From an uncultured Candidatus Saccharibacteria bacterium (GTDB lineage: Bacteria; Patescibacteriota; Saccharimonadia; Saccharimonadales; AWTP1-31), in contig CAYPDT010000002.1 in assembly GCA_964409615.1 (NCBI GenBank), positions 1,226 through 65,225 of the forward strand: 64,000 nt of DNA, in the 5' to 3' direction. The notes under the pieces were generated by a model, which saw only the letters and a list, made by a program, of their open reading frames with translations, searched no databases and had not been told where the DNA came from. Positions 11,818 to 56,978 of the stretch are shown here, in pieces (the first letter of the stretch is position 1; each line of letters opens with the position of its first letter). A program made the translations under genes and the position numbers.

Positions 11818-13113
11818 CTAGTTTGCGAAAACTGTCTTGCGGCGGATGCTTCGTACTCGCATTGCGAGGGCGCCAAGTGCTATCACACCTGCAGCAAATG
11901 CACCAACCTCAGTAGCGTTCACACCAGTCTCGGCTAACGCAGGAGGTAATTCTGGCTTACCAACAATGGTAGTAGTTGTACTTGTCTCTTGAGGAGGCAA
12001 GCGCCAGGTGGTTTCTGGTGGAATCATCGGAAACTCTACAATTGTGTCTGGCACAGTTGTTGCCGGTGGCAACACTGGTGGTTGCGTAGTTGTTGGGGCA
12101 GCCACCGTTGTAGAGGTAGTGGATGTTGTTGATGTTGTGCTAGTAGTTGTGGGAGCGGCAGTCGTAGATGTAGTGGTCGCAGGAATAGTTGTACTAGTGG
12201 TGCAAGGTATGGTCGTACTAGTAGTAGTTGATGTCGACGGGGTTGTCGTAGTGGTTTCGTGTGTCACTTCAATACCTTCGTCAAGCGAGCTCCAGCCAGC
12301 ACTTTCGATATTTAGCCGAAGTTCAAGGTTCTGTAACTGGGCATCGGTTGGGTTTAGACCATATTGTTCTGCAAAGAAGTTTCGTAAGTCACTAACCGTT
12401 ACGTCAGTTATCTGGCCACTGTAGCCTTCGACGTTCATCTTACGTACTATCAGGTATTCTTTGCCGTTTAGAACTGCCTGCAGAGCAGCATCGTTGCCAG
12501 CTAAGTCTAAATCTGCTTGAGTTGAACCAACCGGCAGTAGTTTAGCCTCAATCGCCTTGGCGAGTGCTTGATCTTTGGTAACACCGTCTTCAAGCACACC
12601 GTTCTGGTAGTGTGAAGAGGCCGGCTTGTCACAGTCTACAGCCTGAGCGTTCTGGTTTAAGCCACAGTTTTTGATGACCATACGGACATCACCATCTCGG
12701 GCATCAACATGATATACACGTTGCTTGATTGTCACTTTTGGAAGTGGCTTAAATGTTTCAGCAGATGCTTCAGCAAATGCTGTGCCATCGAATAATGTCT
12801 CTTGCGTATCTGCTACTGCAACTTCTGTTCCGGTATTTGCTGGGCTAGCGGTCTCGGCGGTGATAGACAGGCTGCCGACAGCTTGTACAGATTGCAGCTC
12901 ACCAGTATTTGACTGGGCAAATACCAATTGCTGATCTGCTTCAGCGCCTGCGCGAGAAGCATCTACTTCTGTAATGATACTTGCTGCACTTTGCGCGTCA
13001 GGATTACCCTCGAACTGCGCAGCACCTCCAAGAGCCAAAGACTCCTGCACGGCTGGTGGCATTAGCGCTACAGCGCCTTCGCCACTTTGTAATACAATTA
13101 CTTCATTTGACAT
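11818..13113 (-). CDS. cell-wall-anchored surface protein with an LAETG sortase signal and a Thr/Ser/Pro-rich stalk
   Basis: The C-terminus reads LAETG (11923-11937), then a hydrophobic helix (VGAFAAGVIALGALAM), then RVRSIRRK. The T/S/P-rich tract is at 12079-12258. AAGGAG lies 7 nt upstream of the ATG. Confidence 0.8.
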   Translation of the reverse strand: MSNEVIVLQSGEGAVALMPPAVQESLALGGAAQFEGNPDAQSAASIITEVDASRAGAEADQQLVFAQSNTGELQSVQAVGSLSITAETASPANTGTEVAVADTQETLFDGTAFAEASAETFKPLPKVTIKQRVYHVDARDGDVRMVIKNCGLNQNAQAVDCDKPASSHYQNGVLEDGVTKDQALAKAIEAKLLPVGSTQADLDLAGNDAALQAVLNGKEYLIVRKMNVEGYSGQITDVTVSDLRNFFAEQYGLNPTDAQLQNLELRLNIESAGWSSLDEGIEVTHETTTTTPSTSTTTSTTIPCTTSTTIPATTTSTTAAPTTTSTTSTTSTTSTTVAAPTTTQPPVLPPATTVPDTIVEFPMIPPETTWRLPPQETSTTTTIVGKPELPPALAETGVNATEVGAFAAGVIALGALAMRVRSIRRKTVFAN

Positions 13114-13387
13114 ATACTTCTCCTTGGCACATGTGCGCCATTTATCGTTAGAATATATGGGATATCTCTGAAGGATTTGTATCCTTATAAAAGAGTATCG
13201 TCCCGGTTTCGCTACTTGCTCCCCGTATATCCAAGCGACCAGATACAGATAAACGGATCATTACACGACGGTTTACGTCTATAGCATAATACTACTTTTA
13301 TAACATTTTGTCAATATATGCTGTAGTCTTTCTTGCAGACCCAACAGGGCAAGTCTGGTACCTATTTGATTAGTCCAACATTATATC

Positions 13388-13417
13388 TTTACAACCAGGG
13401 GTGTCTGCTGGTATAAT
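13388..13417 (+). promoter_or_regulatory. sigma70-type promoter candidate for infA
   Basis: TTTACA, 18-nt spacer, TATAAT, with a TGG extended -10. The -10 box ends 18 nt before the infA ATG. Confidence 0.5.
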
Positions 13418-17836: not shown

Positions 17837-18085
17837 ATGTTGTCTTCCCTCATTCATCCTGGTGATTGGTGGTTATTAATCCCGTCCTCATTAGCAATAC
17901 TAACGTTAGGTTTGGGAAGATTACAGATAGTTGGACTGATACTACTGCTGGCAACTACGATTGTCATCGGCAACGGCTACGGCTTGCTCAGGGCAGTAAT
18001 TCATCTTGCACTCTGTCTTGCTTTCGCTAAGTTGATACGAATATTTAGCTTACGGTTTGTGGTCGCATCACCACCAAAGTCCTAA
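17837..18085 (+). CDS. possible small membrane protein (weak call)
   Basis: Hydrophobic ORF (LLIPSSLAILTLGLG, VGLILLLATTIVIG). The track start at 17756 lies across the rpsI terminator, so the internal ATG at 17837 is preferred. Confidence 0.3.
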   Translation: MLSSLIHPGDWWLLIPSSLAILTLGLGRLQIVGLILLLATTIVIGNGYGLLRAVIHLALCLAFAKLIRIFSLRFVVASPPKS

Positions 18086-18335
18086 CCAAACCCTCGTCGG
18101 TAAATTCAGGTACTCGGGCATACGTACCCGCAGCAAGCGTACCGTATGTTGCACAGCCACCCAGGCAGGCTGCTGATTCAGTTGAAACATGTGCCTGGCG
18201 CAACTCATCAGCTACTATTGTGCGGTCAGGGCAGTTAGCACCACATAGCGTCACTGTCCGGTCGTCACCAAAGTAAATACCGCCTGGAATAGCGTCTGCA
18301 ACCTGACCAACCGATACAACTTCGAGTTCTTTCAT
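18045..18335 (-). CDS. hypothetical protein, 96 aa, 4 Cys
   Basis: ORF with the Cys pattern C-X3-C ... C-X3-C (LCGANCP ... ACLGGCA). No family recognised. Confidence 0.45.
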   Translation of the reverse strand: MKELEVVSVGQVADAIPGGIYFGDDRTVTLCGANCPDRTIVADELRQAHVSTESAACLGGCATYGTLAAGTYARVPEFTDEGLVRTLVVMRPQTVS

Positions 18336-18378
18336 AAATAAGATTATATCATATTTTGCTGATTTTTCAATTTTGTGA

Positions 18379-18407
18379 TTGACATTTATTTGCCGCGGGC
18401 GTATGGT
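18379..18407 (+). promoter_or_regulatory. sigma70-type promoter candidate upstream of the aromatic-rich leader ORF
   Basis: TTGACA, 17-nt spacer, TATGGT. The -10 box ends 10 nt before the leader ATG, so the transcript would have a very short leader or none. Confidence 0.5.
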
Positions 18408-18417
18408 AAATAGCGTT

Positions 18418-18501
18418 ATGATACAACAAGCAATTAATCAGTTCTATTATTTCTGGTTTACACCGTCATTCGCATGGCGCTTTGCTTCTATATATCAATA
18501 A
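18418..18501 (+). promoter_or_regulatory. candidate 27-codon leader peptide ORF rich in aromatic codons
   Basis: Translates to MIQQAINQFYYFWFTPSFAWRFASIYQ*. That is 2 Trp, 5 Phe and 3 Tyr in 27 codons. A strong terminator follows. Confidence 0.45.
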
Positions 18502-18522
18502 TCCGTAGAAACCGCACAAGCA

Positions 18523-18546
18523 AACCGCCATTCAGGCGGTTTTTTT
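18523..18546 (+). terminator. Rho-independent terminator (candidate attenuator)
   Basis: AACCGCC-ATTCA-GGCGGTT followed by a 7-T run. It lies 21 nt after the leader ORF stop and 45 nt before the next ATG (18591). Confidence 0.75.
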
Positions 18547-18590
18547 ATATCAATTTACTATCACTAAAGAACTATTTACCGAAGAATACT

Positions 18591-18977
18591 ATGTCAGAAC
18601 TAATACCATCAAAATTACTATCAACGCCCTTACAAATACCAACCCCGTTTCATGCCAAGCATATTGAACGAATTACAGAAAGAAGGAGTGAGTTTCGTCA
18701 TGTCTTACAAGAGGTCTTGCTGACATCTGAACTAAGCCCAACAATCACCGAACTCGCCGTGCCCACATCAGATGCTGAGCACCGTTTCAGGATGGGCGCC
18801 AATATTGCGCTTCGGACTTTGCTTGATATTAGTGAAGGAGTGCCGGCCATCACTCGTCTAGGTGCTGCTGAAGCGTTTGAGAGTACAGACCCTACAGCAA
18901 GTCTAGTGCTGCACATACAACCGGCTACGGTGGTTAGAGATAATTCAGGACGCTACGTATTAGTGCAACCGCTATGA
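18591..18977 (+). CDS. hypothetical protein (128 aa)
   Basis: The ATG at 18591 is downstream of the terminator. The track start at 18474 would read through the leader and hairpin. No motif recognised. Confidence 0.5.
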   Translation: MSELIPSKLLSTPLQIPTPFHAKHIERITERRSEFRHVLQEVLLTSELSPTITELAVPTSDAEHRFRMGANIALRTLLDISEGVPAITRLGAAEAFESTDPTASLVLHIQPATVVRDNSGRYVLVQPL

Positions 18978-19066
18978 CACATGTTAGTCACTACAAATAC
19001 TGGTATTTATACGCTTCACTTGGGAGATTCTGTTGGCATTCATACATGCAACATCAAAAACACTAC

Positions 19067-19090
19067 AACCGCCTCCCGCAGGCGGTTTTT
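19067..19090 (+). terminator. second hairpin with the same stem as 18523-18546 and a weaker T-run
   Basis: AACCGCC-TCCCGCA-GGCGGTT followed by TTT, then AC. Confidence 0.5.
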
Positions 19091-19107
19091 ACATACAAGG
19101 AATAACT

Positions 19108-19356
19108 ATGAATGAAAATATAGAAAACACTAGGTCAGGGATGCAAGACACCGTTTATCGTCTGCAGGCAGAAATTGCCTATCAACTGTACCAAGAGCAA
19201 ATACAAGCAGCTCGAGCAAGACAAAGTCGTCTCGAACAATATCTGGCGAACCTGACACAAAAAGAGGTGATTGTTGGCGAATTTTACATTCCCCGCAATT
19301 TTGATGAAGCCTGTGCGATTCATGATGCAGGAGGAGCTGTATATGGCATTTGTTAA
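19108..19356 (+). CDS. hypothetical protein (82 aa) overlapping the trpB start
   Basis: The ATG at 19108 follows the hairpin. Predicted coiled-coil-like QAEIAYQLYQEQIQAARARQSRLEQYL. The 3' end overlaps trpB by 14 nt. Confidence 0.4.
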   Translation: MNENIENTRSGMQDTVYRLQAEIAYQLYQEQIQAARARQSRLEQYLANLTQKEVIVGEFYIPRNFDEACAIHDAGGAVYGIC

Positions 19357-20563
19357 GTCGAGTACGTACTTCGGTCAGTTTGGTGGGAGGTACGTACCAG
19401 AAATGTTACAACCGACATTAGAGGAGGTAGCAAAAGTCTACGATAAACTTCGGCGTTCGCCAAAATTCATTGCTGAGCTACAAGACTTGCAAACAAGTTT
19501 CAATAATCGCCCGACTCCGCTCGTGGAAGCCCAAAACATCACTCGAAAGTTAGGGGGTGCTCGGATTTTCCTCAAGAACGAAGGGCTCAACCACACAGGA
19601 GCGCACAAGATAAACCACTGTCTTGGGCAAGCTCTTGTTGCAAAACACCTGGGGAAGCGACGCTTGATAGCCGAGACCGGCGCCGGGCAGCATGGCGTAG
19701 CCACCGCGACCGTTGCAGCTAAGTTCGGGTTTGAGTGTACGGTTTACATGGGTAAAAAAGATATCCAGCGACAACGCCCGAACGTAGTCTTAATGGGGCT
19801 ACTAGGCGCTGAAGTTGTTTCTGTAGACACCGGTAGCCAAACCTTGAAAGACGCTGTAAGTGCAGCTCTAAAAGACTTGTTACAACATGCCGACACAAGC
19901 CATTACGTTATCGGGTCTTGCCTGGGGCCAGATCCATATCCACGGATGAACCGAGACTTTCAATCAATCATTGGTAAAGAAGTTGCTCAACAGATACCTG
20001 TAAAGCCAACTCATATAATTGCTTGTGTAGGTGGTGGCAGCAATGCGCTTGGTATATTTACTGAGTTTCTAGCAGATACCTCGATTAGGCTTATCGGAGT
20101 AGAGGCCGGCGGAGTTGGCTCAAAAGCAGGTCAACATGCGTGTCGCTTCCCGCATGCTTCGGTAGGTATAATGGAAGGCTATAAATCGTACTTCTTGCAA
20201 GATGACGATGGTAATCAGGGAAAAACGCACAGCATTGCTGCCGGGCTTGATTACCTCGGTATTGGACCTGAGCTTGCCGAACTTCACGATATCAAGCGGG
20301 TTGAGTTTGTCAGCATCAAGGACGAGGATGCACTTGCCGCTGTTAAAACACTCGCCACATTCGAAGGCATCGTCCCCGCACTAGAGTCTGCACATGCTGT
20401 TGCTTACGCCTTAAAACTCAGTGCCACTCTGGGCAAGAATGACGTGGTGGTTGTTAATATTTCTGGCAGAGGCGACAAAGATATGTTTGCCTTGGCACGA
20501 AATTTCGACGGAGCAAACTTTAAGAGATATCTAATAGAGGAGGTGCAAAGATATGGAAAATAA
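19343..20563 (+). CDS. trpB: tryptophan synthase beta chain
   Basis: FGQFGGRYVPE, HTGAHKINH (PLP Lys) and GGGSNALG motifs. GGAGG lies 8 nt upstream of the ATG at 19343. Confidence 0.93.
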   Translation: MAFVKSSTYFGQFGGRYVPEMLQPTLEEVAKVYDKLRRSPKFIAELQDLQTSFNNRPTPLVEAQNITRKLGGARIFLKNEGLNHTGAHKINHCLGQALVAKHLGKRRLIAETGAGQHGVATATVAAKFGFECTVYMGKKDIQRQRPNVVLMGLLGAEVVSVDTGSQTLKDAVSAALKDLLQHADTSHYVIGSCLGPDPYPRMNRDFQSIIGKEVAQQIPVKPTHIIACVGGGSNALGIFTEFLADTSIRLIGVEAGGVGSKAGQHACRFPHASVGIMEGYKSYFLQDDDGNQGKTHSIAAGLDYLGIGPELAELHDIKRVEFVSIKDEDALAAVKTLATFEGIVPALESAHAVAYALKLSATLGKNDVVVVNISGRGDKDMFALARNFDGANFKRYLIEEVQRYGK

Positions 20564-21299
20564 TGTTTTTGCACACGTTGTGGCTGGCTATCCTAGTCGT
20601 AAAGAATGCCTCGCATTTTTAAAGGGAGCGGCTCAGCTCGGCGTTGCAGCACTAGAAGTTCAAATTCCATTTTCCGACCCCAGTGCAGATGGGCCTGTCA
20701 TTATGAGAGCTAACGACCAGGCACTCGCCAACCGAACAACCATACTCGATAGCATGGCTATCATTAAACAAGTACATCAAGACTATCCGACGTTACCGCT
20801 ATATGTCATGAGTTACAGCAATAAAGTATATGCCTATGGTATCCAAAAATTCTGCATCCTGGCTAAGCAAAGTGGTGCAGCCGGGCTGATTGTGCCAGAC
20901 CTACCAATCGATTCAACGGAATATAGAATCTTGCGTGAATCGACTAAGAAGCATGGGCTACGGTTAGTGCCTGTTTTAACACCTGGAATGGCAATCTCGC
21001 GACATAAGTTATATGCACAAGAAAAGCCCAACCTAGTGTATATAACAAGCACTCGTGGAATCACTGGCAACGTGGCTGACACTCAGCAAAGTCTCAAAAA
21101 ATTTATTGCCGAGCATCGAAAAATGAACCAGTCTAGCATAGTCGTAGGCTTTGGTATCCAATCTGCTTTGCAGGTACGCGACACGTTGAAGTGCAGCGAT
21201 TACGTGGTTATCGGCAGCGCAATCACCCAGGAGCTTGGTCTCCATGGAGTAAACGGCGCGCTGGATCTATTGCAAGAATTATGTACAATAACGAATTAG
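20553..21299 (+). CDS. trpA: tryptophan synthase alpha chain
   Basis: LEVQIPFSDPSADGPVI motif; overlaps trpB by 11 nt; 248 aa. Confidence 0.88.
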   Translation: MENNVFAHVVAGYPSRKECLAFLKGAAQLGVAALEVQIPFSDPSADGPVIMRANDQALANRTTILDSMAIIKQVHQDYPTLPLYVMSYSNKVYAYGIQKFCILAKQSGAAGLIVPDLPIDSTEYRILRESTKKHGLRLVPVLTPGMAISRHKLYAQEKPNLVYITSTRGITGNVADTQQSLKKFIAEHRKMNQSSIVVGFGIQSALQVRDTLKCSDYVVIGSAITQELGLHGVNGALDLLQELCTITN

Positions 21300-21309
21300 G
21301 AGTATTACT

Positions 21310-21990
21310 ATGAAGAACAATAATATACATGGAATCATTGGAGTCGGCGACCTGGGTTCTCAGCTGAAAACATGGCTGACTGCCGTAGGAAAAACCGTCA
21401 TCGCTTTCGATACATCCGACTCATCGCTCAGCAACGTCGTCAGCCAGGCAGAAATTTTTGAGCAGGCAGATGTGGTGCACTGGTGTGCGCCACTGCATAG
21501 TATTAGCGCAGGCCTTCAGGTACGCACAAATCAGCATCTGATACTACACGCCAGCGTTATGCATGAAAGCCTGCAAACTAAGCAGGTCATACAAACGCAT
21601 GACACATCGACCAACAATATCGACATCGCCCATTTGCTCATGAACCATGCTAAACGAGTGGTCGTAGCAGCCGAATCTGATGACCCAAAGATGTGTTCTG
21701 AGATATTGGCCGACTGTGGCTTTAACCCAATTGTTAAAACCGTTCAGCAACATGACCGTATGATGGCAGTCTCTCAGGCTCCGATGGCCATGCTCCATGA
21801 GTTAATCCTGAACGAACTGGTCGAACTAGAACAAAATGAGCTCTTAACCCCATCGGGGGCTGAGCTACTCAGTGCTATTCGAGCCCGCGCAGCTAAGTGG
21901 ACTCCTGCGACCCTTCAGTCTATATTGAGCAACCCCGAAATCAACGGACTCATTAGCCAGATGCAATCGCTTATCAAAAATAAACACTAA
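21310..21990 (+). CDS. NAD(P)-binding Rossmann protein, prephenate/arogenate dehydrogenase-like (tentative)
   Basis: N-terminal GIIGVGDLGS (GxGxxG). The QQHDRMMAVSQAPMAM segment resembles the TyrA HD...SHLPH region. Divergent overall. Confidence 0.35.
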   Translation: MKNNNIHGIIGVGDLGSQLKTWLTAVGKTVIAFDTSDSSLSNVVSQAEIFEQADVVHWCAPLHSISAGLQVRTNQHLILHASVMHESLQTKQVIQTHDTSTNNIDIAHLLMNHAKRVVVAAESDDPKMCSEILADCGFNPIVKTVQQHDRMMAVSQAPMAMLHELILNELVELEQNELLTPSGAELLSAIRARAAKWTPATLQSILSNPEINGLISQMQSLIKNKH

Positions 21991-22030: not shown

Positions 22031-23053
22031 ATGACAAAACCTGTAATCCTAACTGGCCTTCGTGCCAATAACGACCTGCAACTCGGCAACTACCTTGGTG
22101 CCATGCTACCTATGGTCGAAATGCAAAGGCAACATGCTGGCGAATATCAAATCAACATGTTCGTGCCAGACCTACACAGCTTCACAACACCAATAGATCA
22201 CTCCAAGCTCTATGAGCAGACTATGCATAACCTAAAGTTATTTGTCGCTGCTGGCCTAGATCTTGATAACCCCGACACATTTGTATATCGTCAAAGTCGC
22301 ATTTCGGCACACAGTGAATTGACTGTTATTCTTAACTGTTTCACCTACATGGGTGAACTCGGCCGTATGACGCAATATAAAGAGAAAGGTGGCGACCAAA
22401 CCAGCGTAAGTGTGGGGTTATTCGACTATCCAGTACTTATGGCAGCCGACATCTTACTGTATGGTGCAAAGTATGTCCCAGTTGGTGCCGACCAAACACA
22501 ACATGTAGAGTTAGCTCGCGATATTGCCATTCGGCTTAACAATAAGTTTGGTGAGCTATTTACGTTACCAGAAGCCGAGAAGGCACAGATTGCGTTCGCC
22601 AACAGCCAATCACGGTTACGTGTGCGTGATTTACAAAAGCCTGAAAAGAAAATGAGTAAGTCTGACGAGTCGGGCAAGGGAGTTATTTTCTTGAGCGATA
22701 GCCCAGAAAATGCCCGCAAAAAGATTATGAGTGCCACCACCGATAGTCTCGGCATTGTTGCCTACGATATCGTCAATCAACCAGGCATTACTAACCTCAT
22801 TGATATTCTGGCAGCTCTGACCAATAAGACTCCAGAAGAAGTCACGAAAGAATATGAAGGCCAAACCATGTACGGCCCCCTCAAAGCAGCTACCGCAGAC
22901 GCCGTTGTGGCCTTTCTAACTGATTTCCAGGCAAAACTGGGGGCAGTAGACGAAGCCAAGCTACAAGCTAAACTTGCGGCCTCTGAAGAAGCCATGAACG
23001 ATGTAGCTAGCAAAACTCTGACTGGTGTTCAGAAAGCCGTAGGCCTCCGTTGA
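22031..23053 (+). CDS. trpS: tryptophan--tRNA ligase
   Basis: LQLGNYLGA (TrpRS-type HIGH region), GELGRMTQYKEKG, KMSKS. Confidence 0.92.
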   Translation: MTKPVILTGLRANNDLQLGNYLGAMLPMVEMQRQHAGEYQINMFVPDLHSFTTPIDHSKLYEQTMHNLKLFVAAGLDLDNPDTFVYRQSRISAHSELTVILNCFTYMGELGRMTQYKEKGGDQTSVSVGLFDYPVLMAADILLYGAKYVPVGADQTQHVELARDIAIRLNNKFGELFTLPEAEKAQIAFANSQSRLRVRDLQKPEKKMSKSDESGKGVIFLSDSPENARKKIMSATTDSLGIVAYDIVNQPGITNLIDILAALTNKTPEEVTKEYEGQTMYGPLKAATADAVVAFLTDFQAKLGAVDEAKLQAKLAASEEAMNDVASKTLTGVQKAVGLR

Positions 23054-56758: not shown

Positions 56759-56788
56759 TTGACTTGTGGCCTATGTAGTTGCTATAAT
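56759..56788 (+). promoter_or_regulatory. promoter candidate for rplJ-rplL
   Basis: TTGACT, 18-nt spacer, TATAAT. Confidence 0.55.
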
Positions 56789-56978
56789 GTACTCATCGTT
56801 ACCAAAGACAGTAGCTGACAATGAGTAATCAACGTCTTAATTTGCTACCGAGGTAGAAACATTATGTTTCAGCACTCTCATTAAGTCCTTGGCACGCTCA
56901 AGGACTTTTTAGTTTAGCGGTAACGTGAAAAACAATATAGGTCGATAGTTTTTCAAAATATACAAAGGAGAATTATCC
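56789..56978 (+). promoter_or_regulatory. structured rplJ 5' leader with an internal terminator hairpin (L10-leader-type autoregulatory element, candidate)
   Basis: 190-nt untranslated leader containing AAGTCCTTG-GCACGCT-CAAGGACTT followed by TTT (56883-56910), 68 nt before the rplJ ATG. Confidence 0.45.

Follow-up and report, generated by a model that had tools for sequence, protein, structure and literature searches.

Leader-peptide attenuation is a textbook mechanism in Proteobacteria and is also known in Actinobacteria. Here we describe a probable attenuator of this kind in a 64,000-nt stretch of contig CAYPDT010000002.1, from an uncultured Candidatus Saccharibacteria bacterium (hereafter the window, whose numbering is used throughout), together with a family of related leaders recovered from metagenomes. 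The closest described systems are the E. coli trp and phe leaders (trpL and pheL; Rfam Trp_leader RF00513 and Phe_leader RF01859), which the present family resembles in having its regulatory codons at or before region 1, an antiterminator formed by regions 2 and 3, an intrinsic terminator formed by regions 3 and 4 and a stop codon before region 3. It differs from them in lacking sequence or structure homology (its Rfam scores are below threshold) and a Shine-Dalgarno sequence, in carrying single codons of three amino acids where trpL and pheL carry tandem repeats of one, and in placing region 1 just downstream of the sensing codons. The family works like Trp_leader and Phe_leader but is a member of neither. 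T-box riboswitches (RF00230) share with it the target trpS and the terminator/antiterminator output; the leader studied here, which is about 130 nt long and coding, has neither a Stem I nor a T-box sequence.

Several actinobacterial systems are similar in part. In Corynebacterium glutamicum, the aroR leader places F-Y-F ahead of the DAHP (3-deoxy-D-arabino-heptulosonate 7-phosphate) synthase gene aroF, and stalling raises read-through (Neshat et al. 2014, as given in PMC11802643 and PMC4046766). Going by its published description, aroR-aroF shares with the present family the mixed consecutive aromatic codons before a DAHP synthase operon, and differs in its actinobacterial host and in having no Trp codon; the leaders described here carry [Y/F]-W-F in a fixed leaderless layout and for the most part precede trpS. 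A candidate attenuator upstream of trpS2 was described in Streptomyces avermitilis alongside trp-operon attenuators (PMC1262725); according to that description it is likewise a leader-peptide attenuator, and not a T-box, on a tryptophanyl-tRNA synthetase gene, in an actinobacterial host. Leaderless polycysteine small open reading frames (ORFs) are described as attenuators of operonic gene expression in mycobacteria (bioRxiv 10.1101/834739), and the C. glutamicum ilvB leader as lacking a ribosome-binding site (Morbach 2000, cited in PMC4046766). As these sources present them, such actinobacterial leaders resemble ours in having a mini-ORF at or next to the 5' end of the transcript and no ribosome-binding site, and differ in the amino acids involved and in phylum. 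Searches of Rfam 15 and of the full-text literature found no report of a leader-peptide attenuator in Saccharibacteria, Patescibacteria or the Candidate Phyla Radiation (CPR), in agreement with an earlier suggestion that it would be novel in a CPR-like genome. The mechanism is known; the tri-aromatic leaderless attenuator family and its lineage appear new.

The preliminary description of the locus, made from the letters alone, had proposed a ribosome-mediated attenuator ahead of a trp module, composed of a TTGACA-17-TATGGT promoter, a 27-codon ORF with ten aromatic codons including two Trp, and a terminator followed by seven T's. All of these elements are in place (Table 1) and the count of 10/27 aromatic codons holds (5 Phe, 3 Tyr and 2 Trp), as does the downstream order ORF1, ORF2, trpB, trpA, a TyrA-like gene and trpS. 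On the sequence evidence set out below, we regard the leader as a ribosome-mediated (leader-peptide) transcription attenuator that probably reads the aromatic amino acid supply through its Tyr, Trp and Phe codons, with a probability of roughly 80%. The locus combines a leader ORF rich in codons of the pathway, an intrinsic terminator before the first gene, an antiterminator that excludes this terminator, and downstream genes that match the codons.

Table 1. Coordinates of the window leader and its surroundings, spacing within the leader family, and leader peptides of relatives.
Feature	Position	Strand	Description
Sigma-70-type promoter	18379..18407	+	TTGACA 18379-18384, 17-nt spacer, TATGGT 18402-18407
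Leader mini-ORF	18418..18501	+	MIQQAINQFYYFWFTPSFAWRFASIYQ; 27 codons, ATG 18418, TAA stop 18499-18501
Putative regulatory aromatic run	18442..18459	+	F-Y-Y-F-W-F; Y-Y-F-W-F = 18445-18459; family core [Y/F]-W-F
Region 1	18464..18469	+	CGUCAU; pairs with AUGGCG to give a predicted anti-antiterminator hairpin, 18464-18479
Region 2	18474..18484	+	AUGGCGCUUUG; 5' strand of the antiterminator; mimics the 3' arm of the terminator
Region 3	18521..18531	+	CAAACCGCCAU; common to antiterminator (with region 2) and terminator (with region 4)
Intrinsic terminator	18522..18546	+	AAACCGCC-ATTCA-GGCGGTTT; 8-bp GC-rich stem 18522-29 / 18535-42, 5-nt loop, seven U 18540-46
ORF1	18591..18977	+	128 aa, without Pfam match, first gene beyond the leader
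Second, degenerate leader	18974..19093	+	ATG overlaps ORF1 stop (ATGA); peptide ...YKYWYLY...
ORF2	19108..19356	+	82 aa, without Pfam match, end overlaps trpB start
trpB	19343-20563	+	part of the strain-variable cassette
trpA	20553-21299	+	part of the strain-variable cassette
TyrA-like NAD-binding protein	21310-21990	+	226 aa; JGI name prephenate dehydrogenase
trpS	22031-23053	+	JGI name tryptophanyl-tRNA synthetase
Family: -10 hexamer (TAnnnT) to ATG			7 nt in 37/62 leaders, range 5-10
Family: -35 hexamer			exact TTGACA in 29, 5/6 positions in 11 (among the 62 leaders with a -10-like hexamer)
Family: ATG to Trp			9-12 codons (69 distinct leaders)
Family: Trp codon to region 2 GGCGG motif			20-22 nt in 66/69
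Family: Trp to stop			mostly 42-45 nt
Family: stop to region 3			20-29 nt
L099/L108 leader peptide			MIRKVVNQFNFYWFTPSFAWRFAYIYR
L107 leader peptide			MSKDVQSTTYWFTDFKRAVI
L101 leader peptide			MSHIKPYFYFWFINPLTWRSTCYCQ; directly ahead of prephenate dehydratase (pheA), tyrA-like, trpS
L104 leader peptide			MSHTKPYFNFWFINPLKWRSTCYCQ; directly ahead of prephenate dehydratase (pheA), tyrA-like, trpS
L005 leader peptide (Saccharimonadales metagenome-assembled genome)			MSTTTQNCAYWFASFKKAIV; after rpsI, ahead of DAHP synthase, prephenate dehydratase, ..., trpB, trpA, trpS
L030 leader peptide (Patescibacteria-group metagenome-assembled genome)			MTTQHNYFDFYWFTKLRKVLDISVS; ahead of DAHP synthase, trpE, D, C, F, B, A

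Within the window, the leader was compared with chance expectation. Its mini-ORF has the top aromatic fraction among the 354 short ATG-initiated ORFs, the arrangement AACCGCC-N3-8-GGCGGTT occurs twice against 0.00 expected, and the leader folds with z = -3.0 relative to shuffles. The hexamer ATGGCG (18474-79) is complementary to CGCCAT (18526-31), a pairing that had been put forward as a possible antiterminator; this core lengthens to 10 bp flanking one C-C mismatch (AUGGCGCUUUG/CAAACCGCCAU). Pairing of the ORF region with the 5' arm of the terminator reaches -16.3 kcal/mol in the strongest duplex, compared with -7.8 +/- 2.0 in shuffles, and is matched by 2/1000 dinucleotide shuffles (stronger than 998/1000). 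Folding, as the preliminary description had recommended, gives two mutually exclusive structures, a terminator state at -30.0 kcal/mol (the terminator itself having -12.3 kcal/mol) and an antiterminator state at -25.8 kcal/mol. The antiterminator is the minimum free energy (MFE) structure of nascent RNA ending at 18531-35, and the terminator state wins once region 4 is present. The ATG lies 10 nt beyond the -10 hexamer, and there is no Shine-Dalgarno sequence upstream of the window mini-ORF. Rfam scans of the leader, at the gathering score and then at E <= 10, returned only noise-level, terminator-driven matches to Phe_leader (19.4 bits against a gathering score of 55, E = 2.2) and Trp_leader (15.3 bits against 41, E = 5.9), both short of the threshold, and no match to the T-box RF00230 at either setting.

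Relatives of the leader were found independently of leader sequence, through homologues of the TyrA-like protein (31-51% identical to that of the window) and gene order, the contigs running rpsI ... tyrA-like, trpS, rluD, holB. Every such contig that extends far enough upstream carries a TTGACA promoter, a mini-ORF and a terminator of the same kind. Among window-type leaders, differences within the aromatic part are synonymous or are swaps between Tyr and Phe. In the L101 and L104 leaders (joint peptide MSH(I/T)KPYF(Y/N)FWFINPL(T/K)WRSTCYCQ), the antiterminator pair adjoining GGCG, A-U in the window and L099, has become G-C; written out, AU-AU in the window corresponds to GU-AC in L101. BLASTN searches with both window leaders against all loci gave no matches. 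A covariance model of the family recovered, in labelled genomes, two further leaders that do not contain the search pattern described below. One of them (L005) shows a three-way compensatory change across regions 2, 3 and 4 (GGCGAUU / AAUCGCC / GGCGAUU), and the other (L030) keeps the architecture but uses another stem, CCGGC, matched upstream by a CCGGAA strand. In total, [Y/F]-W-F is present in 7/7 primary leaders found independently of the pattern. The preliminary description had regarded a lack of conservation of the mini-ORF or of its aromatic codons as the result that would speak against attenuation; the opposite is seen, with the ORF, [Y/F]-W-F and terminator kept in the syntenic relatives. 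Assignment of the family to the CPR is suggested by the nearest TrpB relatives of the window, which are Saccharimonadales metagenome-assembled genomes (MAGs), by the labels of the L005 and L030 genomes, and by the size of contigs that bear family members (about 0.9-1.15 Mb).

From the window-type and syntenic leaders we built the pattern TGGTTTAY-N45-75-ACCGCC-N3-8-GGCGGTTTT and scanned metagenome contigs with it. At least 120 metagenome stretches matched; among the matches listed, 75 are unique with a GGCGG-like copy 19-24 nt past the TGG, and the remaining 45 resemble chance terminators. The pattern scan and the covariance model together yield at least about 70 distinct leaders, all with the terminator. 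In the 75 members defined by their RNA, the frame of the TGG is open over 17 codons in 75/75, compared with 48 and 39 in the other two frames, and an in-frame upstream ATG is found in 69/75, compared with 1 and 7. The residue preceding Trp is aromatic (Tyr/Phe) in 68/75, with codons TAT 48, TTT 11, TTC 5 and TAC 4. No Shine-Dalgarno sequence precedes the ATGs of the family mini-ORFs. Because the ATG sits about 7 nt past the -10 hexamer, the family mRNAs are probably leaderless or nearly so, a start position deduced from the promoter-ATG spacing. The N-terminal residues of the leaders are not conserved across the family, and past W-F-T the family uses three different reading frames (RGG, LAV and WR) over one conserved RNA, GGCGGUUUG; this downstream part of the leader is conserved as RNA and not as protein. 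The second Trp codon of the window does lie in ATGGCG, as had been noticed. It is a by-product of the WR frame inside the antiterminator strand, in one reading-frame subfamily only, and the sensing codons are most plausibly Y-Y-F-W-F.

Covariation, another check that had been proposed for this locus, was assessed on 71 leaders aligned with MAFFT. Pairing in the antiterminator helix reaches 80.2%, compared with 35-52% with slid partners. The helix has 48 cells altered on both sides where shuffles give 22.6 +/- 4.0, with 0/500 shuffles reaching 48, and its covariation score is 0.140 against 0.088. The antiterminator helix covaries, and ATGGCG/CGCCAT is its core. Region 1, which the preliminary description had missed, lies in the family 4-17 nt past the Trp codon and corresponds to the codons just past W-F, ACCGNCAC (CGUCAU in the window), which form a predicted local hairpin with region 2. 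Pairing in this 1:2 helix stands at 68.6%, with a degree of covariation. Its mean duplex energy is -8.6 kcal/mol compared with -4.4/-4.5 for control segments, and its complementarity is individually significant in 18/69 leaders compared with 3-5 for the controls. A pairing of the start-codon region 18412-20 with 18472-80, present in the window MFE structure, was rejected as region 1, the family control segment giving it no support. A second copy of AAACCGC at 18509-15 is present as described earlier; the competing role suggested for it is unsupported, the copy being found in the window lineage only. Full-length folding was replaced by folding of nascent transcripts, with and without a mask for the ribosome footprint. 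When the footprint is placed over the Trp codon, 72/72 nascent RNAs have the antiterminator as their MFE structure, and at the stage preceding synthesis of region 3, 51/72 have the 1:2 hairpin.

The leaders always lie directly upstream of, and co-oriented with, aromatic-pathway or trpS genes, the next start being 17-40 nt away. Downstream, a class I Trp/Tyr-type synthetase as long as TrpS is present in 35 loci, DAHP synthase is the first or second gene past it in 13-15 loci and prephenate dehydratase in 3-4, while indole-3-glycerol phosphate synthase and a TrpR-like protein follow in 1 locus each. In most loci a short, non-conserved ORF of 50-140 aa, in no case with a Pfam match, separates leader and trpS. 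A conserved family among these small ORFs was considered and rejected, 48 of them falling into 38 clusters, nearly all singletons and the largest with 4 members.

These elements suggest the following course of events. Transcription would start on the AUG of the 27-codon ORF or slightly upstream, by a few bases, and give a leaderless or near-leaderless mRNA. When charged tRNA-Tyr, tRNA-Trp and tRNA-Phe are plentiful, the ribosome would pass Y-Y-F-W-F and reach the stop codon; region 1 (18464-69) would pair with region 2 (18474-84), and/or the terminating ribosome would cover distal region 2, a position it is expected to take because of the family geometry and standard footprint sizes. Region 3 would then be free for region 4, and the terminator at 18522-46 would halt RNA polymerase ahead of ORF1. 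Should any of the three tRNAs be scarce, the ribosome would stall on the aromatic run and bury region 1, 10-15 nt downstream of the Trp codon, with region 2 just outside its leading edge. Region 2 could then capture region 3 as it emerges, forming the 10-bp antiterminator, so that no terminator would form and transcription would run on into ORF1, trpBA, the tyrA-like gene and trpS.

A number of points weigh against attenuation of this form. At equilibrium and without a ribosome, the 2:3 helix beats 1:2 in 59/72 nascent RNAs, so that termination under replete conditions must rest on kinetics or on the terminating ribosome; equilibrium folds of the full-length leader, with or without the ribosome mask, did not separate the stalled from the free state. 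The 1:2 hairpin of the window itself is weak (6 bp, -4.8 kcal/mol). In a close strain, L081, a T-to-C change at window 18475 turns the second Trp codon from TGG to CGG within region 2 and weakens both the 1:2 and the 2:3 pairing, with no compensating change. The 10-nt gap between -10 hexamer and ATG in the window, compared with 7 nt in most members, would leave a 5' untranslated region of 3-4 nt without a Shine-Dalgarno sequence. Many operons of the family hold trpS only, for which the logic of sensing Tyr and Phe is not obvious, and the aromatic-Trp-Phe order is more strictly conserved than simple codon counting needs. In the metagenome set W-F-T and the terminator stem are invariant by ascertainment, being fixed by the pattern, which leaves the 7 primary leaders found independently of it. 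Finally, translation of the ORF, the transcription start and leaderless initiation, stalling at the aromatic codons, the efficiency of termination and outcome of the switch, and the amino acid or acids sensed are all deduced from the sequence.

Some of these points would be explained if [Y/F]-W-F-(T), about ten codons from the N-terminus, were a nascent-peptide arrest sequence that acts in the exit tunnel and senses free Trp, indole, another aromatic compound or the state of the ribosome. The stall would then not come from a shortage of charged tRNA, and the same RNA switch would convert it into antitermination. We consider this unlikely. None of the seven primary leaders found independently of the pattern departs from the order aromatic-Trp-Phe, yet the residue before Trp swaps between Tyr and Phe, and second leaders, described below, have W-Y or W-R at the corresponding place. 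The ATG-Trp distance is tightly fixed at 9-12 codons, but the N-terminal residues are unconserved, and conservation of the downstream codons T-D/G-T is explained by the pairing of region 1. Codon sensing of Tyr and Phe is not obviously useful in the many trpS-only operons; the aromatic-pathway genes found downstream elsewhere suit plain codon sensing. TnaC is a W-x3-D-x7-P peptide that stalls at its stop codon and acts on Rho-dependent termination. This signature is absent here: the peptides do not show that spacing of D and P, and the terminator is intrinsic.

A switch independent of translation, in which the ORF is incidental, is in our estimate very unlikely. Here the conserved UAUUGGUUUACC and the UGGC of region 2 would bind uncharged tRNA-Trp in a T-box-like manner (the UGG acting as specifier and the UGGC pairing to the GCCA-3' end), or else a protein, and the bound factor would stabilise the antiterminator. 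In other phyla trpS is a typical T-box target, and the T-box is its usual regulator in Firmicutes. The leader does contain a UGG and, 20 nt away, a UGGC, and the 2:3 helix wins thermodynamically without any ribosome in 59/72 nascent RNAs; however, the UGGC is base-paired in the antiterminator and not bulged, the leader of about 130 nt has no Stem I-like domain, and no T-box or other Rfam family matches it. An incidental ORF would also leave unaccounted for the frame open in 75/75, the in-frame ATG in 69/75 and its position about 7 nt past the -10 hexamer, as well as the Tyr-Phe and synonymous changes before Trp. Leaders of trp operons bound by TRAP carry 9-11 (G/U)AG triplets spaced 2-3 nt apart; reading 18412-18520 directly, we found one UAG and zero GAG, a single triplet that makes no TRAP site. 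That the leader is an independent small gene, a stand-alone small RNA or a 27-aa hydrophobic peptide with the downstream genes transcribed separately, is likewise very unlikely: a strong promoter and a strong terminator do bracket a unit of about 130 nt, and trans-acting RNAs and peptides derived from attenuators are described in Sinorhizobium (rnTrpL and peTrpL; PMC6614838, PMC7298713), but the C-terminal half is read in three frames (RGG, LAV, WR) over conserved RNA so that the peptide itself is unconserved, the unit always lies directly upstream of co-oriented aromatic or trpS genes, and no separate promoter is evident ahead of ORF1 in the window.

Comparison of close strains helps to define what the probable attenuator controls. 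Contigs carrying ORF1 or the 96-aa orphan gene upstream of the leader fall into 3 groups, namely the window's own strain, L081 (98.8% identical) and a sister lineage (L082-L089) whose flanks are 95.6-97.5% identical to the window. The sister-lineage leader equals that of the window except for one G-to-A change. Its ORF1 is 50% identical, and it is without the second leader and hairpin, ORF2, trpB and trpA, window positions 18555-21314 being replaced relative to L082 4530-4973, so that divergence runs from just past the terminator to the start of the tyrA-like gene. trpBA looks like a strain-variable cassette bounded by the terminator, with the second, degenerate leader as its own, and because the sister lineage keeps the first leader without it, that leader is not bound to trpBA. 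The TyrA-like gene and trpS, on the other hand, are syntenic across all relatives. An attenuator ahead of a trp module, as first proposed, is therefore supported as to the attenuator, but the conserved target is the aromatic amino acid/trpS operon and not trpBA. Given the background identity of 96-97%, the near-perfect conservation of the leader among close strains is weak evidence. L081 also carries three changes in the promoter spacer, uncompensated in predicted pairings.

As an anchor for orthologous leaders in GTDB genomes TrpB served poorly, trpBA being a mobile cassette in this lineage, and it was set aside; it reached Saccharimonadales at 63-71% identity, where trpB is preceded by a TrpR-like gene or by a TrpR-TrpB fusion, plus a different leader. 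In three of these MAGs TrpB carries a TrpR/YerC-like domain (PF01371) as an N-terminal fusion (L002 558-2042, L003 3469-4965, L004 5710-7197), and in two others the domain has a gene of its own immediately ahead of trpB (L001 5220-5501, L028 5325-5579). Several Saccharimonadales have an ORF of 75-98 aa that overlaps the start of trpB with its end (L001 5658-5888, L005 5759-5986, L028 5715-6011; compare 19108-19356 in the window), with no recognisable sequence conservation among the translations inspected. ORF1 and the 96-aa gene were also dropped as search anchors, having retrieved near-identical strains only: a search of 5.8 billion proteins gave 2 clusters of homologues for ORF1 and 1 for the 96-aa gene. 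The latter (18045-18335) is the upstream neighbour of the leader on the opposite strand, beyond which lies an rpsM-rpsK-rpsD-rpoA-rplQ-rplM-rpsI cluster. It is served by a strong divergent promoter-like site at 18343-18370 (-), TTGAAA-16-TATAAT with an upstream TG, that stands back to back with the leader promoter.

The window contains a second, degenerate leader between ORF1 and ORF2. The hairpin with the identical stem that had been noted before the trpB-overlapping ORF is indeed there (19067-19087, then five U), and the ORF of this second leader, third of the 354 by aromatic fraction, reads through it. The covariance model R1 scores the second leader at 36.7 bits (E = 2.3e-5). Its fold is ordinary (z = -1.0), and hairpin 2 was rejected as a second switch, the candidate antiterminator, paired by eye, comprising 6 bp that reach into the loop. 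In L220 (1102-1229, ahead of DAHP synthase) and L144 (6419-6530), too, the first small ORF is succeeded by a similar second leader. Each consists of a promoter-less aromatic/Trp mini-ORF with its own terminator, starting at, or a few bases past, the stop of the small ORF, and they carry W-Y or W-R following Trp. The tandem arrangement suggests a hand-over of ribosomes from the small ORF to the second leader. A more far-reaching and rather unlikely proposal is that the invariant aromatic-Trp-Phe, about ten codons from a leaderless start, works in CPR ribosomes as a nascent-peptide arrest module that responds to an aromatic metabolite or to the state of the ribosome, and that the small ORFs between tandem leaders (window, L144 and L220) relay ribosomes to a second, promoter-less attenuator; if true, this would be a new two-stage, translation-relayed attenuation circuit.

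The family defines a class of cis-regulatory element for the CPR. Attenuation needs tight coupling of transcription and translation, so that coupling becomes directly testable in organisms with reduced genomes, and the conserved 7-nt spacing from -10 hexamer to AUG points to leaderless initiation in the lineage. Some Saccharibacteria-like genomes retain a putatively regulated aromatic operon (DAHP synthase, pheA, tyrA-like, trpBA, trpS) beside the ribosomal protein cluster, and the leader persists even where trpS alone remains. Possible uses are as an annotation marker, as a natural control part, responsive to starvation, in those few Saccharibacteria that can be cultivated, and as a probe of the host-derived supplies of these epibionts.

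Other leaders and RNA elements were observed along the way. A second, Trp-only class lies ahead of a small ORF and trpBA in other Saccharimonadales (L005 5597-5740, L028 5579-5700; mini-ORFs MSKIYGNTINRSISTQTTWQNSHNVRESI and MKMFVAGITWRNSPILRESFT). Its ACGGGAG strand starts 20-21 nt past the only TGG, and its pairing partner is the 5' arm of the terminator, CTCCCG...GGGAG-T5, giving the same geometry as the Y-W-F family with a different sequence; in L005 a -10-like TAGTAT stands 7 nt ahead of the ATG. Elsewhere in the window, Rfam reports a c-di-GMP-II-GAG riboswitch aptamer at 13192-13277 (-), barely above threshold (42.1 bits against 40), upstream of a 431-aa ORF (11818-13113, -) and adjoined by strong promoter-like sites at 13286-13417. 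A ribosomal protein L10 leader is found at 56784-56920 (+), with 58.4 bits against a threshold of 44.

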